Shown in pieces: positions 5,404-29,203 of a stretch of DNA of 29,203 nt. Both the position numbers and the translations under genes were made by a program. The stretch lies in sequence record NC_049392.1, one strand, 5' to 3'. Numbering within the stretch: the first letter of the stretch is position 1; every line of letters begins with the position of its first letter. A model generated the notes under the pieces. The model was given only the letters and a program-made list of their open reading frames with translations. It was not told where the DNA came from and did not search any database. Source of the DNA: Escherichia phage ESSI2_ev239.

Positions 5404-5413
5404 AAAAACCTCC

Positions 5414-11026: not shown

Positions 11027-11038
11027 CCCTGCTGCCTC

Positions 11039-11494
11039 TTATCCAATCAGGTTTTCCGTGGCTTCCGCTTCCAGATACGGCACACCGTTGATGTTGACGA
11101 ACTTCGGACTTGTCACGAAGTATTTGATTTTATGCGTGGACACACTGCCACCCTTCGGATCACCATCCAGAACGCTGTTGAGCTGCAGCTTGTTACCAAA
11201 GGTTTCCACCTTCATTTCTTCGCTGCCGGCTTTGGCGTAAAAAAGGAAGTCAACCGGGGGAATACCACGCCATGACCCCGCTGAACGGGCTTTGGCTGTC
11301 AGAACCTGCAGCACTTTGGAGCTGACTTCAATTTCACCCTCGGCGGCAACGTCACCGTCCACATACCCGTCAGGAACACCGCGCGTCTGTGCGGCGGCAC
11401 TGTTATCGGTAATATCCAGCGAAATTTTTTCAATGTGGATCAGGTCACCGTCCAGATAGATATCAAAGGACATCCCTGAAATACGTTTGGTCAT
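11039..11494 (-). CDS. Putative tail tube protein
   Basis: 151 aa immediately downstream of the sheath-sized gene with overlapping stop/start. Assignment by size and order only. Confidence 0.4.
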   Translation of the reverse strand: MTKRISGMSFDIYLDGDLIHIEKISLDITDNSAAAQTRGVPDGYVDGDVAAEGEIEVSSKVLQVLTAKARSAGSWRGIPPVDFLFYAKAGSEEMKVETFGNKLQLNSVLDGDPKGGSVSTHKIKYFVTSPKFVNINGVPYLEAEATENLIG

Positions 11495-12618: not shown

Positions 12619-13319
12619 GCTCTCCCCCTGATATCCTGCGCGTTAACATCCCAGCCGAACCCGATAGCCTGCAGCTGTCGCGCCAGCGCTTTGTTAAAAT
12701 CGTCCTGACCTATCCCCAGAAACGCCCTGGCAGGTAAATCAATCTGCCAGGACGTTTTGACCGGTTTGTCCTCCAGTATCCGGATAAGCAAACCTGCCTG
12801 TCTGGCGGTCATCCTTTCCTGTATTTCCTTATAACCGGGCTTACGCCAGCGCTTACCGCGCCTGACTTTATACCCGGCCTTGCGCAGACGTTTCGCCTGT
12901 CGCAGTGATGCAGGCTTGTCTCCCTGCTCACGGCCTTCCACCTGCTTACGGTTGACGGTCACGCTCATGCCGTTCTGCTGGACATACCCCACCACGCCGG
13001 CAGGCAGATTTCCCTTCGCATTCCGGTAATGACCACCGGCCAGATACAGCCTGACCGACTCTGTTTCAGGCATTTCCCGGATGCGGATCAGTTTCGGCAT
13101 ATTGCGCAACATTTTGCCTTTACGCCGGGTCTGTCGCGCCTGCCACTTATCACCCTCCGGCGACTGCTGATTGCGCACATTACGCTTTGCTGCGGCTTCC
13201 ACGCCGTATTTCGCTATACGCCACAACAGCCGGCGACGTTTCGCAGAAGGTAAATCCAGCTTTTTCAGCGCCTCCTGGAGCTGGCGGAACTGTTCCTTGT
13301 TCAGCTCGCCATTTATCAT
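12615..13319 (-). CDS. Phage virion morphogenesis / tail completion protein (gpS-like)
   Basis: 234 aa with a strongly basic C-terminal half; position after the head completion gene and before the sheath corresponds to gpR/gpS. Confidence 0.5.
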   Translation of the reverse strand: MINGELNKEQFRQLQEALKKLDLPSAKRRRLLWRIAKYGVEAAAKRNVRNQQSPEGDKWQARQTRRKGKMLRNMPKLIRIREMPETESVRLYLAGGHYRNAKGNLPAGVVGYVQQNGMSVTVNRKQVEGREQGDKPASLRQAKRLRKAGYKVRRGKRWRKPGYKEIQERMTARQAGLLIRILEDKPVKTSWQIDLPARAFLGIGQDDFNKALARQLQAIGFGWDVNAQDIRGRA

Positions 13320-13798
13320 TCCTGCCCCTCACTGACCGGGATCACCGTCACCTCATCAGCCGTCCAGACTTCGGGGTTTGCCAGCTTCCAGCGCTGGCCA
13401 TCAAACGGGATCTGGCCTTTGGGATCGGGAACCAGATTAAGTTCCTCCACCATTGGCAGCGTCACCACCATGATGGCGGTTTCCTGGTCGATGGTTTCGA
13501 TATCAAATTCCGGCAGCTCGGCGTCAATGCCGGTTTCCTCAAAGAGCGTGCGCTCATCCTGGCAAAGCCACGACATAAACAAAGCCATCAGGATTTTGGG
13601 ATCGTACTCGCGGTAGGGATAACGCTCCCACGTCAGCACGGCGTTATAACGGATGATGGCAATACGGTACTGCCCCAGCCCGGTGTCCCGCTGTGCCGGG
13701 ATGAACGCGATCTCGTCCATCTGGCTGTCAAATCCCTGCATTGCCCGTCTGGGCATGTTGGCAATGAGAAAATCGGTTAATTCCGTTAACTGGCTCAT
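13316..13798 (-). CDS. Putative tail completion protein (gpR-like)
   Basis: 160 aa, acidic, between gpL and the gpS-like gene with overlapping junctions. Assignment by position. Confidence 0.4.
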   Translation of the reverse strand: MSQLTELTDFLIANMPRRAMQGFDSQMDEIAFIPAQRDTGLGQYRIAIIRYNAVLTWERYPYREYDPKILMALFMSWLCQDERTLFEETGIDAELPEFDIETIDQETAIMVVTLPMVEELNLVPDPKGQIPFDGQRWKLANPEVWTADEVTVIPVSEGQE

Positions 13799-14286
13799 AT
13801 CATGGCCACCGTAATGCGTTGCAGCCCTTTGATGCGGCGTACTGCCAGTGTGGACTCCGCAATCAGGCTGGAGCGTGTTTCGTCACTTTCCTGCCCCGGA
13901 TGGCTCTCACGGCGACCAACAGAGGCAAACTCGCCCATCAAATCAGCTTTGGCACGTGCATATACCGCTTTGCGATAACGGGCGCACAACAGATTTTCGC
14001 CGTCAATTTCCACGCCCGGAACGTGCGCCGCGCGCTCATGACCAGCGCTGCGATACCTTGCCGCCACACTGACCAGATCATCATTGATTTCGCCGGCTGC
14101 AGTCAGCAGCGCCTGGCGGATGGTGGCCGCATCAATATCGGCCGGAATGGTGCGCTGGGACTGAAAATCTTTCACGCTCAGGTCAGGCCAGAAGCCATCA
14201 TTCGTCAGAGTGGCATCGTCAAAATCAATTGAAGTTCCGCTGAACATCCTGTTTCTCCGGAAAAAAGCGGGCTGGCCGGTTTCCAC
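13795..14286 (-). CDS. L: Head completion/stabilisation protein (P2 gpL family)
   Basis: 163 aa; position after M and conserved blocks (FWPDLSVKDF, RKAVYARAKADLMGEFAS, LAVRRIKGLQRITV) parallel P2 gpL. Confidence 0.7.
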   Translation of the reverse strand: METGQPAFFRRNRMFSGTSIDFDDATLTNDGFWPDLSVKDFQSQRTIPADIDAATIRQALLTAAGEINDDLVSVAARYRSAGHERAAHVPGVEIDGENLLCARYRKAVYARAKADLMGEFASVGRRESHPGQESDETRSSLIAESTLAVRRIKGLQRITVAMI

Positions 14287-14340
14287 GGGCGATACGCTTA
14301 TGCGATCCCCTCCACCGCGCCCGCTTTCGGGTCGGTAGTC

Positions 14341-14532
14341 TTACTCGCCGCGTTTTGCGGCCTGAATCTCACCTTCTTCAAACCACGCATCAGATGCGCG
14401 GCCGTCAGCAGTCTGATAGTGGATCAGATACTGATTGCAGCTGTTGGTGTACTCCGCACGGGCTTTGATATGCCCCTCTTCGCCGCTAATGGAAACTTCA
14501 ACAACCTGGCCTAACTCATGCTTAAACGACAT
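14341..14532 (-). CDS. Small hypothetical protein inserted between gpM and gpL
   Basis: 63-aa ORF (MSFKHELGQVVEVSISGEEGHIKARAEY...) tightly packed in the operon, about 1 nt after the M stop and about 54 nt before L. No P2 counterpart at this position that I know of. Confidence 0.45.
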   Translation of the reverse strand: MSFKHELGQVVEVSISGEEGHIKARAEYTNSCNQYLIHYQTADGRASDAWFEEGEIQAAKRGE

Positions 14533-14533
14533 A

Positions 14534-15247
14534 TCAAACTCCTGTAGACTCTTTTTTCAGCGCCCGCAGACGCGCAGCAATACGCTGCAACATCGTGCCA
14601 ACACCACATTTAGGGTCGAATCCCTTCGCCTGCTCCAGCAATTCCTTCGCCCGGAGCAATACTTCCCTGTCTTCCGTTGCCGCTGCGCGTGGCTCTCCGT
14701 TTTCATCGCGTAGCAGGTGCAGACCGGCAAACTTCAGGTATTTGGCCTTAATGACCTCATACACATTCCAGTGCTGCGTCACGTTTTCCAGCGTACGGCC
14801 AAAATACGGCTCCACATCATGCCCCTGCACGGCTTCCGCTTCCGCCCAGGACAACACCGTATCCGCCACAAACACCGGGAACGTACTGCCGAACGCGGCC
14901 GGGGTTTCCTGTCCCCGCTGGATTGCCACATCCGCCCAGTCCAGCGCCTGGTCAAACTGGCCTGTATCAAACAGCCAGACGACACACCAGGCAAAAACAG
15001 GATTCTGTTGCACACTGTCACCTTCCAGCCAGGATTGCGCGGTTGGCATCCAGCGCGGTAACAGCACATCACGCTTAAACTCCATGCGCTCAGCGCGGCT
15101 TTCAATCGCTGCGGCAGCGGCGACATCTTTCTCCAGCGCGACAATCTGAATATGCAGGCTGGTTTCCGTGTCCAGAGACTGCTGCTGTCGCAGTAACCGC
15201 TCCGCTTCAATTCGTGCGCTGTGGCGCTGTGCCGGTGACAGTTGCAT
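14534..15247 (-). CDS. M: Terminase small/endonuclease subunit (P2 gpM family)
   Basis: 237 aa; N-terminal SPAQRH motif and position after the capsid gene match P2 gpM. Confidence 0.8.
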   Translation of the reverse strand: MQLSPAQRHSARIEAERLLRQQQSLDTETSLHIQIVALEKDVAAAAAIESRAERMEFKRDVLLPRWMPTAQSWLEGDSVQQNPVFAWCVVWLFDTGQFDQALDWADVAIQRGQETPAAFGSTFPVFVADTVLSWAEAEAVQGHDVEPYFGRTLENVTQHWNVYEVIKAKYLKFAGLHLLRDENGEPRAAATEDREVLLRAKELLEQAKGFDPKCGVGTMLQRIAARLRALKKESTGV

Positions 15248-15257
15248 TAAATCCCCC

Positions 15258-16286
15258 TTACTCCCCTGCCGGAGGCGCGACCGGTGCCCCGATAGTTACC
15301 GCACTTTCATCAAATGCGGCGTACAGTTCCGGATACTCAACCGCATAACCTTCGTTACGCAGGTATTTGTTTTCATACTGCTTGCGGTCTTCCACAAACT
15401 CCGCCTTGCGCTGGCGCGTGCCGCGCTGGGTGTAGATGTGCAGGTTTGGCAGTGTCGTAACAATCATGCGTTTGCCCGGCATAAACGGCGGTACGTAAGC
15501 CGTGCGACCGGCGATGCTGTCAGACAGTAATTGCGCAGCGATCTTCTCCGTGGGTTTGTCTGCTTTCTGATACAGACGGAACGACTCCGCCGCGACCAGA
15601 TCAGCGCCGACCAGAACCACCAGACGCGGGTCATTACGGAACTGTGCCGGGATTTTGGTATTGATGAGATCGGAAGCCATTGCATCCAGCGACACGTAAT
15701 CGCCTTTCCCGTCACCGTCAAGCACCACCGCATCAGTGATGATCTGCTGGCCGTCCTTCCACTCTTTGACGATCTGATGCCAGCCCTTGTTCACATCCTC
15801 GCCGTTCGGGTTGGTTTCCGCGTTCGTGGTCTCGGCCACTTTGGTACCGTTAAAGCCGATACGCAGCATATCCAGCGCAAACGCCTGATTGGTGAACTCC
15901 TGAACACGCTGGAAAAACTCGTTTTCATCGCCGGCGTTCGCCCAGACAGAAAGCAACTGCCAGGTGAGTGCGGCGCATGAGTCGGTCTCGACCAGACTGT
16001 AATCATTACCACTCACGCCCACTTTCTTACGGAAGCGGCCATCCAGTACACGCCCGGTATACAGGCCAGAGCTGCCAACCGGAACCACCTGCCCCTGCAG
16101 CTGATCGACATCGGCAACGGTGATCAGATTCAGGAAATCAGACTGCTCCATCAGCGCATTGCGCAGCTGGGTTTCTTTGGGGTCGGTGAGTGCAAACCAG
16201 CGTTCGCTGTCGGTCGCCCCGTAGGATTCACGCAGCCCGGTGTGATACTGAAGCAGAAACTCACGGGCTTTCGCATTTAATTGCAT
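15258..16286 (-). CDS. N: Major capsid protein (P2 gpN family)
   Basis: 342 aa, typical gpN size, flanked by O and M in the canonical O-N-M-L order. Confidence 0.85.
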   Translation of the reverse strand: MQLNAKAREFLLQYHTGLRESYGATDSERWFALTDPKETQLRNALMEQSDFLNLITVADVDQLQGQVVPVGSSGLYTGRVLDGRFRKKVGVSGNDYSLVETDSCAALTWQLLSVWANAGDENEFFQRVQEFTNQAFALDMLRIGFNGTKVAETTNAETNPNGEDVNKGWHQIVKEWKDGQQIITDAVVLDGDGKGDYVSLDAMASDLINTKIPAQFRNDPRLVVLVGADLVAAESFRLYQKADKPTEKIAAQLLSDSIAGRTAYVPPFMPGKRMIVTTLPNLHIYTQRGTRQRKAEFVEDRKQYENKYLRNEGYAVEYPELYAAFDESAVTIGAPVAPPAGE

Positions 16287-16320
16287 ATTCTTTTTCCTTA
16301 AAGAAAAGTAGTGTTATCCC

Positions 16321-17160
16321 TTACAGGAAATTGAAGCCTTTTTTGCCCTTGCTGAATTTCTTGTCCGGCAGTTGAGTAACTTTGTTATTCAGCTTGCTGA
16401 AGTTTTTCACCAGCTCCGGCAGGTTCCCCACCAGACGCGCAAAATCTTCGGTGTCCACTACTTCCTTCACGGTGTCCACATCGTCCTGCACATCAGATAC
16501 CGCTTCTTCCGCCTCACCCAGACGGGTTTCAATAGCAGATACGCGCTTATCAATGGCATCCAGCGCTTCAGCCAGCGCCTGTAAGGCATCAGACTGTGAA
16601 GGTTCCTGCTCCGGGGTCTGCTCCGGTTCTTCGATACTGAAAAAATGGCGCCAGCCCTTTTTCGCTGTCTTTGACATTCCCTTTTCCTTTTTAAATTCCC
16701 TGACTTCATCAAACGCCAGCGGCTTGTATGGTCCGATGCGTTTTCCCCTGGTGCGGCTGAAACGTAGCCGTGTGGTGCTTACCCCGGCCGGACTGTCAGT
16801 AATGGCCAGCCCCTCAAGATAGGTTTTCCCGGTATTTCTGAAATTCCCGTCCGGTGTAAACTCCGGTGATAAAAATAAAAGCTGCCCCTTCGCATTCGCC
16901 TGAAGCAACGCTATAGCCGGACAGAGTCGGGCGTATAAACGAAGAATACCTTCATCATCCCGCTCGGCTTTTACTTCCAGCACTTCCCCCATATTCCCGA
17001 AATTGCGGGTATGTTCCGGCCATAACAGCGCGGTATATAAATTGGGGTCATATAATTCAGCGGCATCAAGTAACCATTGTTCTTCAATGGTTCTTTTATC
17101 GACCGTTTCACCCGCAGTGGCGATACAAATCCAGTTTGTTGCCAGTTGTGAACCTGACAT
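16321..17160 (-). CDS. O: Capsid scaffolding protein (P2 gpO family)
   Basis: Track ORF extends to 17250; preferred start is Met 31 (MSGSQLATNW) preceded by GGAGG, giving about 279 aa. Acidic coiled-coil C-terminus typical of gpO. Confidence 0.8.
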   Translation of the reverse strand: MSGSQLATNWICIATAGETVDKRTIEEQWLLDAAELYDPNLYTALLWPEHTRNFGNMGEVLEVKAERDDEGILRLYARLCPAIALLQANAKGQLLFLSPEFTPDGNFRNTGKTYLEGLAITDSPAGVSTTRLRFSRTRGKRIGPYKPLAFDEVREFKKEKGMSKTAKKGWRHFFSIEEPEQTPEQEPSQSDALQALAEALDAIDKRVSAIETRLGEAEEAVSDVQDDVDTVKEVVDTEDFARLVGNLPELVKNFSKLNNKVTQLPDKKFSKGKKGFNFL

Positions 17161-17330
17161 ATTGCCTCCGTTCATTCTGCGAGGCTCAGTATCACCAATA
17201 AAATACACCCACGCATTCCAATTATTTCGGTGAAATTCGGATATAAGCAATAACCGAACTCAGCAGAATTAATTTTCAAAAATCGCGGCTGAATTGCTGA
17301 ATAATTCGCTTATTAATAAACAGATGAATT

Positions 17331-19133
17331 ATGGCAAGGAAGCCAATGGCAAAATACAGTGAAGAACTAAAAGGAGTGGCAAGGGCGCTATACCTGAAGC
17401 GCTATACACCGCAGGAAATTGCCAGCGAACTTAACTTACCCAACCGGCGAATTGTTTATTACTGGGCGGAGAAATATTGCTGGGCGGAACTGCTCAGTCA
17501 TGAATCCACGGAAGACGCGCTGAATCGCCGCGTGCAGTCGCTGACGCTGCGAGAGGGAAAATCAGAGCTGGAGCTACGCGAGCTGGACAGCCTCGTAGCC
17601 CATCTGGTGAAACTCCGTGCGCAGCATAATAAGCATCAGGAAAAGCTGGCCGAAATTAAACACCGTGGCGGCGAAGATGGAGCTGCACCGCGCCAGTCTG
17701 GTGATGGGGATAAATCGGGTAAACGCGGAAAATACAAAAAGAACGATATCAGCAAACTTACTCAGGAGGATTTTGACGCATTCGCCGCAGAGCATTTCTT
17801 CGGCTATCAAAAACATCTGCGAGCCAATCTTGGCCAGCAGGTCAGAAATATACTCAAAAGCCGCCAGATTGGCGCTACCTGGTATTTTTCGATAGAAGCC
17901 TTTGAAAGTGCGGTTATGACAGGCGATCCGCAAATTTTTCTCTCTGCATCCAAAGCCCAGGCGGAAGTCTTTCGCAGCTACATCGTCAACATCGCAGAGC
18001 AGTATTTTGGCGTGGAACTCACCGGCAACCCCATCCGTCTGTCCAACGGCGCGGAGCTGCGCTTCCTGTCCACCAACAAAAATACCGCACAGTCCTATAA
18101 CGGCCATCTGTACTGTGATGAATATTTCTGGGTTCCGAACTTCGCCAAACTGAATGAAGTGGCCAGCGCAATGGCCACGATTGATAAATGGCGCACCACC
18201 TACTTTTCCACGCCAAGCAGCAAGACCCACCAGGCGTACCCGTTCTGGACAGGCGAGGAATGGAAGCGCGGCGACAAAAAGCGCGCACGAACAGTATTCC
18301 CGACCGATAAAGAGCTGCGCGACGGTGGGCGGCTTTGTCCTGACGGCCAGTGGCGTTACATCATTACGATGGAAGACGCTATCGCCGGTGGCTTTAACCT
18401 GGCCAGCATCGAGAAGCTACGCAACCGCTACAACCGCGACACGTTCAACATGCTCTATATGTGCATATTCGTGGACAGTAAAGACAGCGTATTTTCGTTC
18501 TCCCGCGTCGAAAAATGCTGTGTCGATCCGGATACGTGGGAAGACCATGACGAAGACCTTCCCCGCCCGTTCGGTAACAGAGAGGTATGGGCGGGCTATG
18601 ACCCCGCCCGCAGCGGCGATACGTCCACCTTTGTGATTATCGCGCCGCCGATACTGGCCGTCGAAAAGTTTCGCGTGCTGCGCGTTTTCCACTGGCAGGG
18701 GATGAACTGGAAATGGCAGGCGGCACAGATTAAGAAGCTGTTTGGCCAGTACAACATGACCTACATCGGTATTGATATCACCGGGCTGGGAAGCGGTGTC
18801 TTTGAAGACGTTCAGCACTTTGCCATGCGCCAGGCAGTCGCGATCCGCTACGGCGTCGAGACCAAAAATCGTCTGGTGATGAAGATGATTGACGTAATCG
18901 AAGACGGCCGCGTGGAATGGGATAAGGAGAAGACCGAAATCGCCGCCAGCTTTATGACCATCCGGCGCACGTCCACGGCCAGCGGCAACGCGATGACGTT
19001 CGTCGCCGACCGCACAGCAGAAACAGGCCACGCAGACAGTTTCTGGGCTATCGCCCACGCTATCGACAATGAACCACTCAATTACGGAAACCAGCGTAAA
19101 TCCCGCTGGGGAAACTTAGGGAAAGCAGCATGA
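17331..19133 (+). CDS. P: Terminase large (ATPase) subunit (P2 gpP family)
   Basis: 600 aa, divergent from O across a ~170 bp AT-rich intergenic region, as P and O are arranged in P2; followed by the portal gene with overlapping stop/start. Confidence 0.85.
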   Translation: MARKPMAKYSEELKGVARALYLKRYTPQEIASELNLPNRRIVYYWAEKYCWAELLSHESTEDALNRRVQSLTLREGKSELELRELDSLVAHLVKLRAQHNKHQEKLAEIKHRGGEDGAAPRQSGDGDKSGKRGKYKKNDISKLTQEDFDAFAAEHFFGYQKHLRANLGQQVRNILKSRQIGATWYFSIEAFESAVMTGDPQIFLSASKAQAEVFRSYIVNIAEQYFGVELTGNPIRLSNGAELRFLSTNKNTAQSYNGHLYCDEYFWVPNFAKLNEVASAMATIDKWRTTYFSTPSSKTHQAYPFWTGEEWKRGDKKRARTVFPTDKELRDGGRLCPDGQWRYIITMEDAIAGGFNLASIEKLRNRYNRDTFNMLYMCIFVDSKDSVFSFSRVEKCCVDPDTWEDHDEDLPRPFGNREVWAGYDPARSGDTSTFVIIAPPILAVEKFRVLRVFHWQGMNWKWQAAQIKKLFGQYNMTYIGIDITGLGSGVFEDVQHFAMRQAVAIRYGVETKNRLVMKMIDVIEDGRVEWDKEKTEIAASFMTIRRTSTASGNAMTFVADRTAETGHADSFWAIAHAIDNEPLNYGNQRKSRWGNLGKAA

Positions 19134-20149
19134 AGAAACGCAAATTCCGGGAGCGCCGCAGCGCCCCAAAACCGCGTCATATGAGCCTTATCAGCCTGGG
19201 TAAGCCTGAACCCATTCTGACCACCGGCACAAACTATACCGATGTGTGGTACGACAACGAGGCAGAGCACTGGACGCTGCCGATTGACCGGCTGGCACTG
19301 GCGCAACTGGTGAACCTCAATGCACAGCACGGCGGCGTGCTGTATGCCCGTCGCAATATGGTGTCGGCAAACTATGAAAATGGCGGGCTTACGCATGAAC
19401 AGCTGGGGGCGGCAGTATTCGACTGGCTAACGTTCGGTGATGTGGCCATTCTGAAGGTGCGCAATGGATGGGGGGATGTGGTGGCGCTGTATCCGCTGCC
19501 GGCGCTGTACACCCGGCAGCGCAAAACCGGAGAATTCGTCGTGCTGCAACAGGCTGAACCAATGATTTACCCCCCTGAAGATATCATCTTCCTGAAGCAG
19601 TACGACCCGCAGCAGGCGGTTTATGGCCTCCCGGACTACATCAGCGGCATTCATTCCGCACTGCTGAACGGTGAGGCAACTATCTTCCGCCGCCGTTACT
19701 ACCACAACGGCGCTCACACCGGGGGCATTATCTATTCCAATGACCCGAACATGACCGACGAAGTGGAAGAAGAGATTATCAGCAAGCTGGAACAGTCGAA
19801 GGGGATCGGGAATTTCAGCACCATGTTCGTGAATATTCCCAAAGGCGATCCGGACGGCATCAAATTTATTCCGATTGGCGATATCAGCGCCAAAGATGAG
19901 TTTCAGAACATCAAGAGCATCAGCGCCCAGGACGTTCTGACCGCGCACCGCTTTCCGGCCGGACTGGCGGGGATTATCCCGACGAACGGCGCAGTAATGG
20001 GAGATATTGAGAAAGCGGCTAAAACCTACCGTAAAGCTGAAATTTTACCCGTTCAGCGTATGTTTGCGGCAGCGATTGCTGGCCAGAGCGATATTCCACA
20101 GCATTTGTACCTGAATTTCCTGAAAGACAGCGAGCTGGAAGGTGATTAA
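19130..20149 (+). CDS. Q: Portal protein (P2 gpQ family)
   Basis: 339 aa; overlaps the terminase stop by 4 nt; P-then-Q order as in the P2 PQ operon. Confidence 0.85.
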   Translation: MKKRKFRERRSAPKPRHMSLISLGKPEPILTTGTNYTDVWYDNEAEHWTLPIDRLALAQLVNLNAQHGGVLYARRNMVSANYENGGLTHEQLGAAVFDWLTFGDVAILKVRNGWGDVVALYPLPALYTRQRKTGEFVVLQQAEPMIYPPEDIIFLKQYDPQQAVYGLPDYISGIHSALLNGEATIFRRRYYHNGAHTGGIIYSNDPNMTDEVEEEIISKLEQSKGIGNFSTMFVNIPKGDPDGIKFIPIGDISAKDEFQNIKSISAQDVLTAHRFPAGLAGIIPTNGAVMGDIEKAAKTYRKAEILPVQRMFAAAIAGQSDIPQHLYLNFLKDSELEGD

Positions 20150-20202
20150 TGCCACTAAAAAGGCTAAAATATAGGCGTTTTCAGGGCCATGGAGCGCGGA
20201 AT

Positions 20203-20472
20203 ATGCGGGTACTAAAAGTAAAATGTCCGGAGTGCGGGGCAAAAGCGATCATCAAAAAGACGAATCCCAAGCACCCCCATATTTCAGATATTTACTGCGC
20301 CTGTTCTGACGTGGAATGCGGTCATACCTTCGTGCTTAACCTGACGTTCTCCCACACATTAAGCCCCAGTGCCAAGACCGGGGACTTGATGGTGCAGACG
20401 ATCCTCAATTCCTTCTCGCCAGAACAGAAGCAAATGACGCTGGATTTATTGAAAGCCGGAATGGCTGCATAG
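20203..20472 (+). CDS. ogr: Ogr/Delta-family zinc-finger late transcription activator
   Basis: Track ORF starts at 20149; preferred start is MRVLKVK, preceded by GGAG. Cysteine spacing C-x2-C-x22-C-x4-C (CPEC ... CSDVEC) matches the Ogr/Delta zinc finger. Confidence 0.7.
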   Translation: MRVLKVKCPECGAKAIIKKTNPKHPHISDIYCACSDVECGHTFVLNLTFSHTLSPSAKTGDLMVQTILNSFSPEQKQMTLDLLKAGMAA

Positions 20473-20499: not shown

Positions 20500-20751
20500 T
20501 TACGCGCTTGCCTCAGTCTTGATAAAGGCAATGCCATCTTTAAGGAATGCGTGATAGTTTCTCCCACTCAAAGGGGAGTGAACCACAGCAGTAAGCGGCA
20601 ACAAAACATCAACAACGTTAGCAAATTGCTCAAAACTGATATCGAAGTGCTCCATTGTCAGTTCATCAAAATCAGTCGTTTCATATAGTTCATCGCTGAT
20701 ATTAAAAATTCCCATCAGCAATTCCTCATACGAAAAATAATTTTGCTTCAT
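20500..20751 (-). CDS. Small acidic hypothetical protein (candidate accessory, anti-defence or exclusion factor)
   Basis: 83 aa, rich in D/E/F; last gene of the early operon, in a region visibly AT-richer than the structural genes. Confidence 0.5.
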   Translation of the reverse strand: MKQNYFSYEELLMGIFNISDELYETTDFDELTMEHFDISFEQFANVVDVLLPLTAVVHSPLSGRNYHAFLKDGIAFIKTEASA

Positions 20752-20773
20752 TTATTCGCCCTATAATTATTCG

Positions 20774-21145
20774 CTAATCAATAATCTTAATGGTCATATC
20801 ATCCGAATCAAAAACGCCGGACACATCAACCCCTGTAATTTTGATTCCCTCAGAACCGTCCATTGGAGGCCATCCCTCCTGCCCGTTACCTTCTTTCCAG
20901 TCAAATTCACATACAACACCATATGTATTAAAGTTATTCTCAAGTGCAATGAGCATCGCATGTTGTGCCAGCATAATTAAGACGGCATTAAGTACAGATT
21001 CATGCTTCATGAGACGATATTTAGCTTCCGACCAGAAATTGTTAATTTCATGTAATTTTTCTTCTGTCATTACATCGTGGTCAATTTCAATATCAATCTC
21101 CGCTTTCCAGTCATAATCCACGGTATATCTTTTGACATTTGTCAT
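20774..21145 (-). CDS. Acidic hypothetical protein (candidate accessory, anti-defence or exclusion factor)
   Basis: Track ORF 20774-21238; preferred start is MTNVKRYT, preceded by AAGGGG at 6-7 nt, about 10 nt after the primase-helicase stop. Roughly 123 aa, acidic, no domain I can name. Confidence 0.5.
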   Translation of the reverse strand: MTNVKRYTVDYDWKAEIDIEIDHDVMTEEKLHEINNFWSEAKYRLMKHESVLNAVLIMLAQHAMLIALENNFNTYGVVCEFDWKEGNGQEGWPPMDGSEGIKITGVDVSGVFDSDDMTIKIID

Positions 21146-21155
21146 TATTTTCCCC

Positions 21156-23882
21156 TTATTTTTCCCTACGGAATATCCAGCAACGGAATGTATCCGGCAT
21201 GCGTTGCATTTCACCTTTGCCACGGTTATGGCGTTCACTCACTGCGCTGCGCGTGGTTTTGGTGTCGATAAAACGGCGCTCGTTGCCGTTTTTAAGCAGC
21301 TTTTTAATCTCGGTTAAAGTAAACGGAATACGCTGCCGGTGGGCGGCGGCGACTTCTTCCAGATGGTTAAAATTGACCGCTATTTCACCTTCATCCGATG
21401 AATGGTTAATACCATGCGGTGCCAGCTCGTCGAGGTAGTCAAACAGCTCCCAAAACTCCTGCACCAGAGGGTGATCCTTTTTAAGCGCCTGACACCGTTC
21501 CACGGCCAGCGCGGTGATGGCCTCGCGGGTCTTCTCAATACGCTCCACCGGCACCGGCACAACCAACGCCAGCGCTTCCAGCAAACCGACCAGTTGCGCA
21601 TGGTTTTTGGCGATACGGATATGGCGGATATTGGTATTAGACTCCAGCTCGCCACGGGCGCGTTCGTAGCCCTGGCCAAACACCTTCATGATTTCTTTTT
21701 CACGCATAGTGGCCAGCAGGGTGAAACCAGATACCTGGCTGACTGGGATCTGCTCAAGGCGTTCAGCGGCATAGCGGGTCTGAATAGACTGGCCACGCTT
21801 GTCGGTATAGATGTGGATGATACGCTCCAGAAACGCCTTACTGCCGTCTGTGTCGGCGTTCTGCGCTATCACTATGCTGCCCCTGAATGGCGGCTCGTAG
21901 GTCTCGTTATTGTTCGATTTGATACCCACAGCGCGGGAGGCGCGACCGTTATACAGTGATTTCAGCTCGTCCCAGTCAAAAGCGCGTTGTTTAGCGTTAT
22001 CGGTAGTACGGTCGCCCTCAATCAGCACAACCGGCAAATTACCGACCTGCGCAAAGTTACGGCCACGCGCTGCGGCTGTCGATTTGGAAGGATCAAACCC
22101 TTCATACTCTTCACGGCCGGCGAGTTTCCACAGAAATTCAATCAGCGTGGATTTACCTGTTCCCGGTTCCCCCACGATTTCAAGAAACGGGAAAGACTTG
22201 TCACGCTCGCGGATTTGCTCAGCAAACAGCGACCCCAGCCAGAACGCCAGAGCCACATACCCTTTTTCACCAAAAGCCGTCCAGATATCGTCTACCCAGC
22301 CCGTAGTAAATTCGTTCAGCTTCGGATTCAGATCCAGCGACGGCGTGAGGCTCAGGCTCTTGACGCTGGCGCTGTTGATTTCGAAATAATCTTCATCGTT
22401 CATTTCGTACAGCCGGCCATCACAAACAGCCACGCGATTAAACAGCCATGCAGCATAATCCTTGTTATAGCCAATGAAATTTTGCGTCTTAACCTCTTTG
22501 ATTTCAGGGAGGCGCATCTGGATGAACTTATCCAGCTGTTTGGTACTGCCGGTGTACACCGCACCTTTGGCGATATGCAGCAGACGTTTTTTAAACTCGG
22601 CGGAACTGGTTAACTGGTTGGCCGTGAAAGTATCTTTCACGGCTGGCCGGTTCGGCATATTGACCTTCACGTAATACCAGGACTCGTCTGTAGGTTCAGA
22701 CCGCTGGAAGTAAAGCGGCGTCAGCCAGCAGTTGGCGATTTCAGTCACGCCACCTGACTCTTTAACCGCCCGTTCTTTGGCCTCCCACTCCATCACCACT
22801 TCAGTACCGGTATTGGTGATGCGCTCATAAGCTCGCATGTACCTGTCCAGATCCAGCTCAAACCAGTACATGCGGGAGTTATGCTCAAAATAGAACGAAT
22901 GCCACTCGTTATGCTGATGCATGAGCAACGCTTTTTCAGTCGGGCTTTTCGCCAGAAGGATATCGCCATAGTAGCGATAATTTTTGATGTCCGATTTGCT
23001 GAACCGCCCACGTAAAAGCAGGTCATTCCAGTCCAGACTGGAGGATGATTTCACCGGCTGCGCCGCGCGAACTTTCCAGCCGGCTTCCTCGCTACGGGCA
23101 GCAAAGGCCAGCGTGTGCTTAGTGCCAGCTCTGTCACCATCAAACGCCCATATCAGGCGTGGGCGGGGTTTCTCGCCCAGCTCTTTAGCCAGGGTATCCA
23201 GCGCCACCAGTGGGTAATTATTGCTGCTCAGTGTGGCCACAGCGGGTAAACCCGCCTGGCACAGGCTCAGCGCGTTGAAGATGCCCTCAGTGATCCAGAT
23301 TTCATTCACTTCCAGCAGGTTCACAGACGGCGGAACCCACCAGTGGCCAACGTAGCTGCCTCTGATGTTCGCTTTCTGCTTACCAAAGCGCTGCGGCTGG
23401 TCAATGATGCGCTCCCATGTCGCACCGCAGGTCAGCTTAAATCTGACGGTTGCCGACCCCATACCATCTTTGGCAAACGCCCCCTGGGTAAAGCAACCTT
23501 TCAGCGGTTCAGTATCCAGCCCTCTCGCCTCGCGCAGATACGCCTCAGCTACCGCATGAGGGTTATCTTCTGTGGCCTGGTACCGTTTTGACCAGTCTTC
23601 AAAAATATCCGGATACAGCTCTTTGACAACGACCTGATGGCCGCAGTTGTTTTCGCGGCCGCACTTCAGGATCCAGGGCTTTTCTATGCTGGTAAATAAT
23701 TCACGTTTGTGGCATTTAGGGCAAACGCCCTGTTGCAGATATTTATCCCGTTCCTTGAATTCAAAATCCTGAACGAGTCGGCACACAACGTCCTGCTGTA
23801 TTGTGGCATTCATAATTAATCCAGATGTAGAAAGGTGTGAAAGGCAAAAACTATATTCGGTATTGTTTGTTATATCGCTCAT
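21156..23882 (-). CDS. Replication primase-helicase (zinc-finger + Toprim primase + P-loop NTPase; P4 alpha-like architecture)
   Basis: 908 aa with CPKCH...CGRENNCGH zinc motif, Toprim-like EGIFNA and AFDGDRAG, and Walker A GEPGTGKS. Start may be the internal MNATIQ (about 23813). Confidence 0.75.
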   Translation of the reverse strand: MSDITNNTEYSFCLSHLSTSGLIMNATIQQDVVCRLVQDFEFKERDKYLQQGVCPKCHKRELFTSIEKPWILKCGRENNCGHQVVVKELYPDIFEDWSKRYQATEDNPHAVAEAYLREARGLDTEPLKGCFTQGAFAKDGMGSATVRFKLTCGATWERIIDQPQRFGKQKANIRGSYVGHWWVPPSVNLLEVNEIWITEGIFNALSLCQAGLPAVATLSSNNYPLVALDTLAKELGEKPRPRLIWAFDGDRAGTKHTLAFAARSEEAGWKVRAAQPVKSSSSLDWNDLLLRGRFSKSDIKNYRYYGDILLAKSPTEKALLMHQHNEWHSFYFEHNSRMYWFELDLDRYMRAYERITNTGTEVVMEWEAKERAVKESGGVTEIANCWLTPLYFQRSEPTDESWYYVKVNMPNRPAVKDTFTANQLTSSAEFKKRLLHIAKGAVYTGSTKQLDKFIQMRLPEIKEVKTQNFIGYNKDYAAWLFNRVAVCDGRLYEMNDEDYFEINSASVKSLSLTPSLDLNPKLNEFTTGWVDDIWTAFGEKGYVALAFWLGSLFAEQIRERDKSFPFLEIVGEPGTGKSTLIEFLWKLAGREEYEGFDPSKSTAAARGRNFAQVGNLPVVLIEGDRTTDNAKQRAFDWDELKSLYNGRASRAVGIKSNNNETYEPPFRGSIVIAQNADTDGSKAFLERIIHIYTDKRGQSIQTRYAAERLEQIPVSQVSGFTLLATMREKEIMKVFGQGYERARGELESNTNIRHIRIAKNHAQLVGLLEALALVVPVPVERIEKTREAITALAVERCQALKKDHPLVQEFWELFDYLDELAPHGINHSSDEGEIAVNFNHLEEVAAAHRQRIPFTLTEIKKLLKNGNERRFIDTKTTRSAVSERHNRGKGEMQRMPDTFRCWIFRREK

Positions 23883-25249: not shown

Positions 25250-25345
25250 GTGTTATCCTCCGTTTTGCAAACCTTTGCAGACCGTTCTAGAACACTCTGG
25301 AACATTCCACATGTGACACATTACAAAATGGAGGATATTCCTTAC
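25250..25345. promoter_or_regulatory. Immunity switch region between cox and C (candidate Pe/Pc promoters and operator repeats)
   Basis: 96-bp intergenic region containing two pairs of direct repeats spaced about one helical turn apart: TTTGCAAAC / TTTGCAGAC and GAACACT / GAACATT. Confidence 0.4.
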
Positions 25346-25666
25346 ATGGCACATATGTCAAGTATGGGTGAGAAGTTTCGTTTAATCCGCAAGGCTGAGG
25401 GAATGACCCGCCAAGAGTTTGCTGATGCAGTTGGCTTACCTTATGGAACGCTAACGAACTACGAAACAAAGGGTTTCCAAGTAACAGAAGGCGCTCTTAT
25501 GAAGATAACCAAAAACCCAAGATTCAAAAAATACGCTTACTGGCTTTCAACGGACGAAACCATGCCGGAGGTAGGTCAAATATCCCCGGCTCTCTCTCTT
25601 GATGGGTCAGAGCAACCGGAGGATATTCCGGATTTAACCCCCAAAACAGCAAAATCACACCGTTAA
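25346..25666 (+). CDS. C: Immunity repressor (P2 C-like, helix-turn-helix)
   Basis: Track ORF starts at 25013; preferred start MAHMSSMGEKF follows GGAGG at about 10 nt. HTH segment TRQEFADAVGLPYGTLTNYE; about 106 aa, directly upstream of int. Confidence 0.7.
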   Translation: MAHMSSMGEKFRLIRKAEGMTRQEFADAVGLPYGTLTNYETKGFQVTEGALMKITKNPRFKKYAYWLSTDETMPEVGQISPALSLDGSEQPEDIPDLTPKTAKSHR

Positions 25667-25750: not shown

Positions 25751-26734
25751 ATGGCGATTAAGAAGCTCGATGATGGACGTTATGAACTGGACACAAGAGC
25801 GGGCGGACGCACCAGTAAGCGGATCCGCAAAATATTTAACAGAAGGGCTGATGCTGTTGCGTATGAACGCTACATGCTGGGTAAGTTTCAGCGCAAGGAA
25901 TGGGATCCGGCAGCACAGATTGACAGGCGCACGCTGGACGATATCAGAGAATTGTGGTGGCTCTACCACGGCCAGACGCAGAAGAATGGCGAGATTGAAA
26001 ACAGGCATCTCATCAAAACCATTACCGCGCTGGATAATCCGCAGGTAGGCGAGGTTAACAAACGAATGCTGATAGTCCACCGCAGCCGCAGGCTGGCGCA
26101 GGGAATAAGCGCATCCACGGTCAACCGCGATATTTACCGGCTGTCCGGCATGTTCAGCGCACTGATCAAGCTGGATGAGTTTGAGGGGGAAAACCCGCTG
26201 CGTGGTCTGCCTCCCCTGAAAGAGAAAAATCCCGGCATGACCTTTCTCACAAAACCGGAAATTAGCCGCCTGCTGGACACGCTGACGGGCGATTACCGAC
26301 TGGTTGCCCTGCTGTGCCTCAGCACAGGCGGACGCTGGGGAGAGGTCAGTACGCTGACGGAATCGCAGATTATGCACGGCCGTGTCGTATTCCTGGAAAC
26401 GAAGAACGGCAAAAAGCGCGTGGTTCCCATCTCTTCCGAACTGGAAGACGAAATTATGGCCAACGCCAGCGCGGGGCTGTTCCGGGTGGACTATGAAAAC
26501 TTCTGCCGGAAGCTGCGGAAGGTCAAGCCAGACCTGCCACGCGGTCAGGCCACCCACATTCTGCGACACACGTTCGCCAGCCACTTTATGATGAACGGCG
26601 GGAATATCATTGCGCTTCAGCAGATACTTGGCCATGCCAGCATTCAGCAGACGATGGCGTATGCGCATCTGGCACCGGATTATCTCCAGAACGCTATCGC
26701 ACTGAATCCGCTGAAAGGGGGGCTGGGAGTCTGA
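25751..26734 (+). CDS. int: Tyrosine integrase (P2 Int-like)
   Basis: Start MAIKKLDDGRYE, preceded by GGAGGG, matches the P2 Int N-terminus; catalytic region HILRHTFASHFMMNGGNIIALQQILGH...MAYAHL carries the R-H-R-Y signature. Confidence 0.9.
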   Translation: MAIKKLDDGRYELDTRAGGRTSKRIRKIFNRRADAVAYERYMLGKFQRKEWDPAAQIDRRTLDDIRELWWLYHGQTQKNGEIENRHLIKTITALDNPQVGEVNKRMLIVHRSRRLAQGISASTVNRDIYRLSGMFSALIKLDEFEGENPLRGLPPLKEKNPGMTFLTKPEISRLLDTLTGDYRLVALLCLSTGGRWGEVSTLTESQIMHGRVVFLETKNGKKRVVPISSELEDEIMANASAGLFRVDYENFCRKLRKVKPDLPRGQATHILRHTFASHFMMNGGNIIALQQILGHASIQQTMAYAHLAPDYLQNAIALNPLKGGLGV

Positions 26735-26739
26735 TAATT

Positions 26740-26970
26740 CCGTCCACATGTGGACGCATTTTTCCGTTTCGGGACTGCCTGAAACCGCCTGAAACGGAAG
26801 TGTGGACAGTGTGGACGGTAAAATTGGCCTGAAAAGTTTGTAAGTCGTTGAAAAAAAAGACCCCCACATCATGTGGGGGAAGACAGGGATGGTGTTGTTT
26901 TAAAAAGCATAAATCATTGATATTGTTGTATTTATATTGAAATTTCCGTCCACAAAACGTCCACATCGAC
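26740..26970. other. attP attachment site: Int arm-type repeats flanking a hairpin core
   Basis: Left arm GTCCACATGTGGAC (about 26742-26755) and TGTGGACAGTGTGGACGG (about 26801-26818); core hairpin cccccacat-cat-gtggggg preceded by A8 (about 26851-26879); AT-rich spacer; right arm CCGTCCACAAAACGTCCACA (about 26946-26967) in opposite orientation. Confidence 0.6.
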
Positions 26971-27189
26971 CGCAAGCCCCAGTTTCTGGGGCTTTATCAA
27001 AAAAACGTGACGTCTATCACGGTAATGGCGAACTGCAAGAAGTTCGGTTGCCAAATGGCTGATATCGCTTTCTAAATCAATTCAATCTCATATGACATAA
27101 CTACGTTGTGAAACAGGAACTACTGAATGCTGATTCACCATAGATGAAAAAAATGCTAATATCCACAAAAAGGCTAAGCGTAAAATAAA

Positions 27190-28293
27190 ATGAAATATAT
27201 TTTTGAATACGGATTTTATCTCAGCATACTTATAGCGACAATATATGTCACTTCTAAGTTTTTGGGTATTACACCTGCAAAACATAAATACGCCTCACTT
27301 GATGGCTTACGTGGAATTTGTGCAGCAATGGTTGCTGTATTCCATCTTTACTGGAGAGCCGGAGGAGAATCAGATATATACTGGTCTCTTGAGTACATTA
27401 CACTCAGCAATGTAAAACGCGCCATATATCTAACAGGTGAGTTATCTGTTGGTGTATTTTTTATGCTGTCTGCTTTTTTATTTTTCAAAAAGGCACTGGC
27501 GAACTCCTTCGATGTAAAAAGTTTTGCAATTTCACGATTCATGCGAATTTACCCACCTGTAGTGGTTCTTTTATTTATAATATATATTGCAACATTTATC
27601 ATGAATCCGGATGACCATACTCCAGTATCGCAATGGTTTATACCTTCATTACCATTTATATTCAATCCACCTGGAGCTAACATCAATGGTGTATCGCTCC
27701 AGATTGCCACATCTGGTGTGTTCTGGACGTTAGTCTGGGAATTACGCCTATACCTTGCAATTCCATTTTTATATCTGATAATGAAAAACATAAAATATAA
27801 AGAAGCATTTGTTATTTTTTTAATGGGATGTATTTTGTTATTCAAGTATTTTATAAATAATGAACAATACCTGAGTTATATAATGTATTTCCTTGCCGGA
27901 TTTCTTGTCGCTACAATCAAGAGTAACAAGCGCCCATCAGATATAATCTGCGTTTTATTATTATTCGCAGCTATATATTTCACTCGACATGCTTACAACA
28001 CTACAACTCCGCTTTATATGTTTGTTATTTTCTACACAATAAAGTGCGGATGTGATTACTTTGGCTTACTTACATCCCTGCCTGTAACTATGCTGGGAAC
28101 CTGCAGTTTCTCCCTTTATTTAGTTCATGGGATAACTCAGACAGTATCTAAACATTATTTATATAGCACAGGAAACTATGTTTGGCAGATTTGTGCAATT
28201 ATTGCGGCAGGTATCATTGCGCCGGTTATGTACAAATATGTCGAAAGTCGCAGCATCATACATAAGCCTCCTCACCTTCAGATTGCAAAGTAG
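27190..28293 (+). CDS. Acyltransferase family 3 integral membrane protein (candidate O-antigen O-acetyltransferase, lysogenic-conversion moron)
   Basis: 367 aa, about 10 hydrophobic segments, N-terminal signature LDGLRGICAAMVAVFH typical of the Oac/OafA-type acyltransferase-3 family; markedly AT-rich compared with the phage backbone. Confidence 0.75.
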   Translation: MKYIFEYGFYLSILIATIYVTSKFLGITPAKHKYASLDGLRGICAAMVAVFHLYWRAGGESDIYWSLEYITLSNVKRAIYLTGELSVGVFFMLSAFLFFKKALANSFDVKSFAISRFMRIYPPVVVLLFIIYIATFIMNPDDHTPVSQWFIPSLPFIFNPPGANINGVSLQIATSGVFWTLVWELRLYLAIPFLYLIMKNIKYKEAFVIFLMGCILLFKYFINNEQYLSYIMYFLAGFLVATIKSNKRPSDIICVLLLFAAIYFTRHAYNTTTPLYMFVIFYTIKCGCDYFGLLTSLPVTMLGTCSFSLYLVHGITQTVSKHYLYSTGNYVWQICAIIAAGIIAPVMYKYVESRSIIHKPPHLQIAK

Positions 28294-28322: not shown

Positions 28323-28387
28323 TCCCACCGCGCTGTTAAAATTTTGTTTCGTCTCACCCCGCATTTTTAAGTTGCCCATCGGAAAAA

Positions 28388-28653
28388 CGTCACAACCATC
28401 ACACATCAAAGAAACACCACCTATCCACATGATTATCATGAATAAAATTTGTGACGGTAAAACCATCACAAAACGTAACACAAACCGTCACACTCAATAA
28501 ATTCAGCGAGTTATAAAACAGAGCTGTGATGTTTTAAGGCCGTCACACTGTGATGCTCTTGTGATAGTTTTGTGATGGTTTTCAATATATGAATTTACTT
28601 ATACATATCATATAGATAAATGATATTTTTAAAATCTGTGATGTTTGTGACGG
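28388..28653. repeat. Iteron-like array of about 11 TGTGA(C/T)GG motifs in both orientations (candidate replication origin or regulator binding array)
   Basis: Motif copies at about 28388, 28396, 28450, 28463, 28485, 28524, 28540, 28548, 28571, 28636 and 28646, several as inverted pairs; AT-rich block (tatatgaatttacttatacatatcatatagataaatgatattttt) lies inside; no ORF of 60 aa or more. Confidence 0.5.
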
Positions 28654-29126
28654 TTTTCCGATGCTCCCCCTCAATTTTTGAAAAAATAAGAAGTGGTCAG
28701 AAATCACCCTGATTTGTTGGTGAGTTTGTTTCTCTCTCTGTTACTGATTTGGTTACTGGTGGCAGCATGTGTGCACAGGGATGGGAGCAGACGGATCTGT
28801 GCAAGGTATTTCAGTTGTGCCGGTTCGTACAGTTCCCCGTAAACCCGTGCCAGCTGCGGCTTTCTGTTTTTAAACGCTTACGAGAGCCGGCGCCGGCCGT
28901 TACGTAAAAAATCACGTAATCACAACTCATCCCGCATGGCTCAGGGCTTTAGCTCCTGTTACGCCCTGCCTTCCATCGCACAAAAACTGAAATCTTTGAA
29001 ATCTGTTTCACACATTTCAGTTTGAGATCTGGTCTCAAAGCCCCAGCGCTGGCGCGGTCTGGCGGTATGTTTTGTACCCCCGGAAAAACTGAAATCATTC
29101 TCAACACGAAAACCGCAGGCGGGGGC

Positions 29127-29203
29127 CTGTCTCTTATACACATCTCCGAGCCCACGAGACTCCTGAGCATCTCGTATGCCGTCTTCTGCTTGAAAAAAAA
29201 AAA
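29127..29203. other. Sequencing adapter contamination (Nextera read-through adapter with 8-nt index, P7 tail and poly-A)
   Basis: CTGTCTCTTATACACATCTCCGAGCCCACGAGAC + TCCTGAGC + ATCTCGTATGCCGTCTTCTGCTTG + A11 is the standard Nextera i7 adapter structure; not biological sequence. Confidence 0.9.

Follow-up and report, generated by a model that had tools for sequence, protein, structure and literature searches.

A complete Wphi-type attachment site next to the integrase gene of an ESSI-2-like peduovirus, with a core that matches the 3' end of the CpxQ sRNA gene

Does the stretch that follows the integrase gene of Escherichia phage ESSI2_ev239 (NC_049392.1) hold a complete phage attachment site, and was the DNA that carries it free of a host chromosome? 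The preliminary description of this record, which is analysed here over its whole length of 29,203 nucleotides and referred to as the window, had read the repeats, hairpin and AT-rich spacer at 26740-26970 as an intact attP of an unintegrated phage. Overall, positions 26742-26965 form the complete attP of a temperate peduovirus on a contig of packaged, unintegrated DNA with a probability of roughly 0.88.

The 29.2-kb window is a peduovirus genome with a map order that is reversed relative to P2. The phage is temperate and joins an ESSI-2/Quadragintavirus-like structural module to a P2/Wphi-like int-C-cox module; the tRNA scan of the window returned no hit. The genes that matter for the argument are the following.

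307-13800, minus strand: tail and baseplate genes
13795-17250, minus strand: head genes
17331-20149, plus strand: terminase and portal genes
20149-20472, after terminase and portal: Ogr-like gene
21156-23882, minus strand: Toprim primase-helicase, 908 aa
24980-25249, minus strand: cox, the directionality factor gene
25346-25666, plus strand: C-type repressor
25751-26734, plus strand: int, P2-family heterobivalent tyrosine integrase, 327 aa (Pfam Int_N and Phage_integrase)
27190-28293, plus strand: cargo acyltransferase (Acyl_transf_3), 367 aa, next to attP

Genome order and tail genes are shared with the ESSI-2-like phages (Cronobacter ESSI-2 and Escherichia ESSI2_ev129, ev015 and ev040; Seongnamvirus/Quadragintavirus), and the tail half is about 89% identical at the nucleotide level to ESSI-2-like peduoviruses, whereas the integrases, immunity and replication modules of these phages differ from those of the window and their attachment sites presumably differ too. 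The integrase is 65% identical to that of Wphi, 48% to that of P2 and 80% to that of a prophage in E. coli SCU-171, and the catalytic columns R/H-x-x-R/H/Y are invariant. Its N-terminus, GRYELDTR, shows the Y/D/R pattern that has been assigned to the P2 arm-site type, the consensus of which is tgTGGaCa (PMC3448106). Judged by Pfam domains, identity and the Y/D/R pattern, the gene adjoining the putative site thus encodes a P2-family integrase with an N-terminal arm-binding domain.

Matches to this arm consensus are concentrated immediately downstream of int. On both strands of the window TGTGGAC occurs nine times against 3.5 expected copies, a count that none of 100 shuffles reached, and six of the nine copies lie within the 224 bp from 26742 to 26965, where about 0.03 would be expected (Poisson estimate about 1e-12). 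The arm repeats, the core hairpin and the run of eight adenines that the preliminary description had listed are all present; A8 occupies 26851-26858, with GA between it and the core hairpin. The locus is built as follows.

26742-26755: palindrome GTCCACA/TGTGGAC, outer element of the int-proximal arm (halves 26742-26748, minus strand, and 26749-26755, plus strand)
26777-26794, plus strand: two GCCTGAAAC repeats in 10-bp phase, with a third copy, GCCTGAAA, at 26827-26834
26801-26816, plus strand: tandem TGTGGAC-AG-TGTGGAC, inner element of the int-proximal arm (copies 26801-26807 and 26810-26816)
26853-26895: 43-bp common core of attP and attB with a single mismatch, at 26859, and perfect over 36 bp (26860-26895)
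26861-26879, minus strand: core hairpin CCCCCACAT-C-ATGTGGGGG, followed on that strand by UC and U8 (26860-26851)
26910-26922, minus strand: IHF consensus TATCAATGATTTA, within the AT-rich spacer that separates core and distal arm
26948-26965, minus strand: distal arm, tandem GTCCACA-AAAC-GTCCACA followed by TCGAC (copies 26948-26954 and 26959-26965)
26974-26994, plus strand: hairpin AAGCCCCAG-TTT-CTGGGGCTT followed by TATC, a terminator bounding attP

Both flanks of the core carry at least two matches to the arm consensus, the int flank four and the distal flank two. The IHF-like sequence that had been suspected in the spacer turns out to be a perfect consensus, without a second perfect WATCAANNNNTTR match anywhere in the window, and this predicted IHF site between core and int-distal arm has the same relative position as the annotated site of P2. 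By contrast, core-type half-sites for Int could not be recognised by eye.

The decisive evidence comes from lysogens and from chromosomes in which the site is empty. An integrase with 100% identity occurs on many genome and metagenome contigs, always with cpxP, cpxR and cpxA about 185 bp downstream, and these contigs also carry, at a distance of about 28 kb, a 100% identical acyltransferase, with fieF and pfkA before it and the tail genes of this phage after it. In Citrobacter lysogens these two genes mark a prophage of about 29 kb between fieF and cpxP. Window positions 26700-26895 are 100% identical to the lysogen attL, which then continues into host CTATGGCAAGG... on the cpxP side, while 26853-27200 is nearly identical to the lysogen attR (one substitution in one lysogen), with host DNA to its left and the distal arm included. 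In the alignment of attP, attL and attR the divergence into host sequence, on the cpxP side and on the fieF side, falls exactly at the edges of the core. A search of host genomes for the core, which had been proposed as a check, was carried out by scanning the 35-bp core against one genome per species. It found at least 120 loci across Enterobacterales, which flank analysis resolved into 111 empty sites, six attL, two to three attR and no attP. Empty attB sites are present in Citrobacter amalonaticus (L026) and C. sedlakii (L130), the fieF-side flanks of which are those of the lysogen attR, and on this sequence evidence the two species appear to be natural hosts of the phage. The core is thus identical to a bacterial attB, with attL and attR junctions in lysogens, and since arms and core recur in attL and attR and attB is found empty, the region is a true attP, as had been proposed, and the DNA to its right is phage cargo. 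The latter had likewise been foreseen: in every lysogen the acyltransferase belongs to the prophage, with attR on one side and, after about 830 bp, directly the tail genes on the other. Host DNA immediately to the right of the core, which had been named as a finding against an attP, is absent by comparison with lysogens and empty sites alike.

The position of attB identifies the specificity as that of Wphi. With cpxP on one side and fieF on the other, attB overlaps the cpxP terminator; for E. coli W, cpxP-fieF has been given as the site of prophage Wphi1 (PMC3032704), and E. coli prophages at the same site show the order int-attL-cpxP on one side and fieF-attR-ogr on the other. This integration site was therefore already known, and the attP described here is a Wphi-type site on an ESSI-2-like phage. 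Wphi (AY135739/AJ245959) resembles the window in its attB, AT-rich spacer and hairpin terminator, in the core sequence except for the extra GA that separates the A8 run from the hairpin in the window, and in the distal arm, which reads GTCCACA-N4-GTCCACATCGAC in both. It differs in its int-proximal arm, a tandem GTCCACA that is oriented like the distal pair and separated from the core by about 100 bp, and in what lies beyond attP, namely ogr in Wphi and the acyltransferase in the window, as well as in having P2-like where the window has ESSI-2-like structural genes.

What the core corresponds to in the host can be read from E. coli K-12. In the K-12 annotation cpxQ is a 58-nt sRNA that starts 10 nt past the cpxP stop codon, and alignment to K-12 places the core, read on the minus strand, at nt 16-58 of CpxQ, that is in the cpxP 3'UTR with the terminator hairpin and U8 included. 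The attachment site of Wphi thus coincides with the 3' two-thirds of the CpxQ sRNA gene. CpxQ belongs to the Cpx response; it is a 3'UTR sRNA that is processed by RNase E, depends on Hfq and is described in reviews as exceptionally conserved (PMC9438474). This accounts for the conservation of the core and attB across Enterobacterales, with no variation of the core from Escherichia to Erwinia and Edwardsiella. The minus-strand hairpin with its T8, previously suggested as a terminator, is accordingly a copy of the host cpxP/CpxQ terminator. Hairpin and T-run together give a terminator-like score on the minus strand, whereas the fold of the hairpin alone is not significant (z about -0.9 to -1.4), and it is on the homology to the CpxQ 3' end and the match in the terminator scan, and not on energy, that it is accepted as a terminator. 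Rfam returned no family at gathering score, and no CpxQ match, in the window, the lysogen locus or the empty attB locus, and the identity of CpxQ was therefore taken from the K-12 annotation. The only sub-threshold Rfam match was to Hrs1 on the plus strand (28 bits against a cut-off of 56 bits); the Hrs1 consensus resembles the reverse complement of a CpxQ-type terminator. No text that links CpxQ to phage integration was found in the searchable papers. Integration at the 3' end of small RNA genes, with a core that restores this end, is a known class that includes 186 in tRNA-Ile, Fels-2/SopEPhi in ssrA and Wphi2 at cyaR; unlike the tRNA and tmRNA cases, the target here is an sRNA derived from a 3'UTR.

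Polymorphisms narrow the crossover within the core. In one genome the base at window position 26868 is G in attR and A in attL, and in the relative from E. coli SCU-171 attL keeps phage-type bases through 26872, which together point to strand exchange within a short interval whose right limit is the end of identity.

26873-26895: interval predicted to hold the strand-exchange points

The attP, attB, attL and attR sites would thereby be fixed to within about 23 bp.

How far does the site follow the layout of P2, as the preliminary description maintained? In P2 (AF063097, with annotated footprinted sites) the order is terminator, P arm bound by Int, IHF, core, Cox, P' arm and int, and this order is shared, as are the tgTGGaCa arm consensus, the heterobivalent tyrosine integrase and the Cox directionality factor. 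The arms, however, had been named the wrong way round: the int-proximal arm corresponds to P' and the distal arm to P, the orientation and context of the latter (GTCCACATCGAC) matching the P arms of both P2 and Wphi. Unlike P2, the window has another core and attB, a different number and orientation of int-proximal repeats, no cox-box, and a P' arm that does not overlap the int reading frame. In P2, in Wphi and in two metagenomic attP sites of Wphi type (L193 and L196) all arm repeats share one orientation, with about 90-100 bp between the int-proximal pair and the core, whereas the inner tandem pair of the window, 36 bp from the core, is inverted with respect to the distal pair and is missing at the corresponding position in P2 and Wphi. 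The arrangement of the window, with the 26801-26816 pair turned round, therefore departs from that of P2. The inner pair is kept, as TGTGGAC-N3-TGTGGACGG, in both relatives with an integrase of 80-81% identity, the SCU-171 prophage and the metagenomic L149, so that the inverted pair appears, from this conservation, to be a lineage-specific variant of the P2 layout and no ground for excluding the site from the attP class. Most integrase relatives in IMG/VR are prophage predictions that are cut a few bases past the int stop and are useless for this purpose; the informative ones were L149, L170, L193 and L196, plus a few that offered short flanks only.

Only one GTCCACA of the window, that at 26742-26748, holds the int-proximal position and orientation seen in P2 and Wphi. 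It forms one half of the palindrome, and the palindrome invites a competing interpretation, namely that it serves as the int terminator or as a site related to the C/Cox operator instead of an arm site for Int. On the plus strand it forms a terminator-like hairpin followed by CATTTTT, a T-rich tail right after the int stop, and the 10-mer TCCACATGTG that it contains is found again in the cox-C operator region (chance about 0.02 by estimate). Moreover conservation in SCU-171 and L149 does not extend to the 26749-26755 half. It is the GTCCACA half alone that both relatives have kept, at a place and in an orientation that match the P' arm repeats of P2 and Wphi, and the two roles are compatible. 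A purely terminator- or operator-like function is possible, if doubtful, and the arm-site reading of the GTCCACA half is to be preferred.

Between this arm repeat and the core lie the phased GCCTGAAAC repeats, one of three features that the preliminary description did not mention, together with the terminator at 26974-26994 and the conservation of half the palindrome. The repeats sit like the Cox footprint of P2, between the core and the P' arm, and are probably, as a guess from position, the best candidates for Cox sites; the P2-type cox-box (TTAAAG/CNCA) was searched for and is absent. The phased pair is retained with changed sequence in the relatives, as two copies of CCTGAGAC in SCU-171 and as CTTGAGAC/CCTGAGGC in L149. 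A shared-k-mer comparison of the int-proximal arm with the cox-C intergenic region gave, in addition to the palindrome 10-mer, no more than a weak similarity for the GCCTGAAAC repeats, and in one relative the repeats show a weak co-variation with the operator motifs. At the other border of the site, the hairpin at 26974-26994 is stable (-15.2 kcal/mol, z = -2.8; none of 200 shuffles was equally stable). It is the positional counterpart of the ogr/F-operon terminator of P2 and has a homologue in Wphi.

Taken together, the features suggest how the site would work. Reading away from int, attP would consist of the P' arm repeat GTCCACA within the palindrome, the phased repeats, the inverted TGTGGAC pair, the core, the IHF site, the P arm and the terminator. 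Int would bind the arm heptamers through its N-terminal domain and the core through its core-binding and catalytic domains, and IHF would bend the distal arm back onto the core. The resulting intasome would recombine with attB, the 3' 43 nt of the CpxQ gene (cpxP 3'UTR and terminator) between cpxP and fieF. Integration would rebuild a full-length CpxQ in attL with a terminator of phage origin, and would place the AT-rich acyltransferase cargo at the attR end, beside fieF. The rebuilt 3' end reads ...GGGGG-UC-U8 in attL versus ...GGGGG-U8 in the host.

An intact attP does not by itself reveal in which physical form the DNA was sequenced, and here the ends of the contig are informative. Both lie inside one 15-mer, GCGGGTGCGGTGTAG.

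29119-29126, plus strand: right genome terminus, the first 8 nt of GCGGGTGCGGTGTAG, read as GCGGGGGC, with adapter abutting
117-128, plus strand: left genome terminus, the last 12 nt of GCGGGTGCGGTGTAG (GGTGCGGTGTAG)

By comparison with prophages, in which the GCGGGTGCGGTGTAG site is uninterrupted, window position 29126 directly precedes position 117 and the two ends overlap by 5 nt. Positions 29127-29203 are Nextera adapter; a conserved-looking element at this end, which matches T4-like and unrelated phages, proved to be that adapter and not a tRNA. At the left end, positions 1-123 are an exact direct copy of 5096-5218, joined at 117-123 through the 7-nt microhomology GGTGCGG, and 1-116 is therefore a chimeric piece of 116 nt. 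An artefact caused by an invertible segment or repeat was considered for the contig break and rejected, since the copy is direct, the 7-nt microhomology lies exactly at the 15-mer and the relatives have no insertion there. The tail and head copies of the 15-mer differ in one base, G versus T at 29124, so that reads with errors may be the source of the last bases.

The same sequence ends other records. That of Cronobacter phage ESSI-2 starts and ends with GCGGGTGCGGTGTAG as a 15-nt terminal repeat, that of ESSI2_ev129 ends in ...CCGCAGGCG plus Nextera adapter and starts with adapter plus GTAGCGCC..., and that of ESSI2_ev015 ends in ...GCAGGCGGGTGC, with the same base as the tail of the window, again at Nextera adapter; the ev phages are isolates from faecal viromes (PMC6969025). 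Because these three records end there while prophages run through, GCGGGTGCGGTGTAG is the cohesive-end site (cos) of the ESSI-2-like group. The cos 19-mer of P2, GGCGAGGCGGGGAAAGCAC, has no match in the window with up to three mismatches, and cos was located from the ends of the related records after that search had failed. The ESSI-2-like phages share not only the cos sequence with the window but also its unusual, non-P2 location and the arrangement of int, attP, acetyltransferase cargo and cos: in the virion-derived ev129 and ev015, int is followed by an acetyltransferase and then by the genome end, the cargo being a serine acetyltransferase in this group versus Acyl_transf_3 in the window. 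The contig is thus most likely a linear cos-to-cos genome of about 29.0 kb (117-29126) that was cut for packaging and came from virions, for which the sequence ends and the adapter are indirect evidence. Both att arms are contiguous on it without host DNA, and its ends coincide with the cleavage site of cos. Such ends support an unintegrated state more strongly than attP does alone, and they favour packaged linear DNA over a plasmid-like circle. The preliminary description, which had left the choice between virion DNA, an excised circle and a plasmid-like state, was right that the DNA is unintegrated, its ends being those of virion-derived ESSI-2-like genomes; among the forms it named, the cos-ended contig points to the packaged one.

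Two other histories of the DNA deserve attention. In the first it would be unintegrated but intracellular, excised circles or replicating concatemers of an induced lysogen. The contig covers the genome once, its 5-nt end overlap closes a circle by comparison with prophages, the portal-proximal region is crossed unbroken, and the two physical forms are indistinguishable from assemblies. Circular or concatemeric templates should, however, yield reads straight through cos, whereas the sole break of the contig falls within the 15-nt cos, exactly where virion-derived ev129 and ev015 break, and the adapter and the microhomology chimera, one on each end, are signs of free ends; an intracellular origin is accordingly improbable. 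In the second, prophages in tandem at one attB would make int-attP-cargo an internal junction of chromosomal DNA. A possible precedent exists in a bacterial genome assembly: on one of its contigs (L019, 70.6 kb) a different integrase (67% identical) and its own arm are followed by the core and then by the distal arm and acyltransferase of this phage. This hybrid may be a tandem-lysogen junction, a recombinant phage being the alternative, and its presence in a bacterial assembly means that an int-attP-cargo junction alone is no proof of an unintegrated state. In the window, however, both arms come from one phage, as they do in single lysogens, host DNA is absent from the contig, and the ends lie at cos with adapter as in virion assemblies, while the attL and attR branches of a tandem lysogen should, going by how assemblers behave, break the assembly at the core and not at cos; a tandem origin is highly improbable. 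That the locus is an attL or attR junction with host chromosome right of the core may be dismissed, for although the core is also host sequence (CpxQ) and the DNA to its right is AT-rich and unlike the phage backbone, the core-adjacent host flanks (CTATGGCAAGG... on the cpxP side, species-specific on the fieF side) are absent here and in lysogens the DNA right of the core runs on into phage tail genes.

With packaged DNA as the preferred reading, the contig can be annotated as a complete, cos-terminated, unintegrated genome of a temperate phage that carries a P2/Wphi-type integration module on an ESSI-2-like chassis, with a predicted host range of C. amalonaticus, C. sedlakii and any enterobacterium with a conserved CpxQ 3' end. 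Current understanding is not overturned, and the interest of the locus is modest; it lies in the overlap of attB with CpxQ, in the non-P2 location of cos, and in the variant int-proximal arm, a natural departure from the P2 arm-site layout that may be useful for work on intasome architecture. A bolder joint reading, which has to be regarded as rather unlikely, holds that the integrase lineage of the window, SCU-171 and L149 builds an intasome with a geometry unlike that of P2 and Wphi, and that the UC-bearing phage terminator lets lysogeny tune the Cpx response. Were it true, the UC before the U-tract could alter 3'-end formation of CpxQ or its binding by Hfq, and tuning of the Cpx envelope-stress response would go hand in hand with surface modification by the adjacent acyltransferase.

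The acyltransferase island itself has a GC content of 33-37% (about 34%) versus 55-59% in int. The encoded protein is 26% identical to O-acyltransferase B of the serotype-converting Shigella phage Sf101 (oacB), which has the same order of int, att, acyltransferase and tail genes and thus likewise carries an acyltransferase moron beside int and attP, whereas Sf101 is a Lederbergvirus and its phage type, integrase and att site are unrelated to those of the window.

In contig L019 (GCA_041297695.1, 70.6 kb), positions 4582-6010 span a junction at which a different P2-family Int, of 326 aa and 67% identical to that of the window, is joined with its own arm, via the same core, to the distal arm and the acyltransferase of the window phage. 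Tandem integration of two different phages at the CpxQ site is the probable origin of this junction, a recombinant phage being the alternative. The Pseudocitrobacter vendiensis prophage (NZ_CALSBS010000018.1; loci L032 and L064) combines an attL, the int-side host junction, carrying the window's int-side arm with an attR, the fieF-side junction, carrying a different distal arm, and the two attP arms therefore reassort between phages. In one further lysogen, L018 (GCA_044030895.1), the tail-fibre and baseplate segment, corresponding to window ~2166-6794 at 88.6% identity, is reversed relative to the window and the other lysogens; either an inversion or a misassembly could account for this.

Rfam family RF02628, Hrs1 (Erwinia Hfq-regulated sRNA 1), which is relevant to window 26853-26900 (+), has a consensus that begins with AAAAAAA-CCCC...GGGG-AGACAGGG. 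This start resembles the CpxQ 3' end in reverse complement, and the likeness suggests that the Hrs1 family may be a strand-flipped homologue of CpxQ. A search of the cpxQ-containing loci against Rfam returned no families at the gathering score. Within the window, the 10-mer TCCACATGTG occurs both in the attP palindrome (26743-26752) and in the cox-C operator region (25306-25315), where it lies just downstream of a predicted leftward promoter. The chance of such sharing is about 0.02, and it is not seen in SCU-171, the E. coli prophage relative; a regulator could also bind at attP, or the match could be a coincidence.

Features of the window ends, the flanking non-coding region and the replication region
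29119-29126 joined to 117-128: cos of ESSI-2-like peduoviruses, GCGGGTGCGGTGTAG, across the junction
29127-29203: Nextera adapter read-through, in the order CTGTCTCTTATACACATCTCCGAGCCCACGAGAC, 8-nt index TCCTGAGC, ATCTCGTATGCCGTCTTCTGCTTG and poly-A
28370-28665: non-coding iteron-like array downstream of the acyltransferase gene, ~13 copies of TGTGAYGGTTT in two opposed blocks
20500-21238, minus strand: two AT-rich genes, of 83 aa (without family) and 154 aa (DUF2528)

Both ends of the record carry extraneous sequence. Window 1-123 is an exact direct copy of 5096-5218, within the tail-fibre gene, and is joined to the true left end of the genome by a 7-nt microhomology, GGTGCGG. The copy most probably arose as a chimera at a free DNA end, in the library or during assembly, and window 1-116 is thus misplaced at the left end of the genome. 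The right-hand 77 nt are Illumina Nextera adapter and non-genomic; in sequence searches they gave spurious 93-95% matches to records of unrelated phages, T4-like ones among them, that contain the same contaminant. Adapter was likewise left at the ends of the GenBank/RefSeq records for the relatives ESSI2_ev129 and ev015. Whereas the P2 cos adjoins the portal gene, that of the ESSI-2-like phages lies away from it, inside a non-coding stretch of ~1 kb between the cargo gene and a 567-aa spike/baseplate gene; the P2 cos 19-mer was not found in the window.

The iteron-like array has 70-nt arms that are 73% complementary, and might serve the 908-aa Toprim primase-helicase as its origin, or else be a region bound by terminase. 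The array region does not align to ESSI2_ev129, whose replication protein differs from that of the window. The 83-aa and DUF2528 genes have the Ogr-like gene on one side and the replication gene on the other, a position held by other genes in relatives, such as zf-C4_ClpX in lysogens with an identical Int, and appear to occupy a second cargo, or 'moron', slot.
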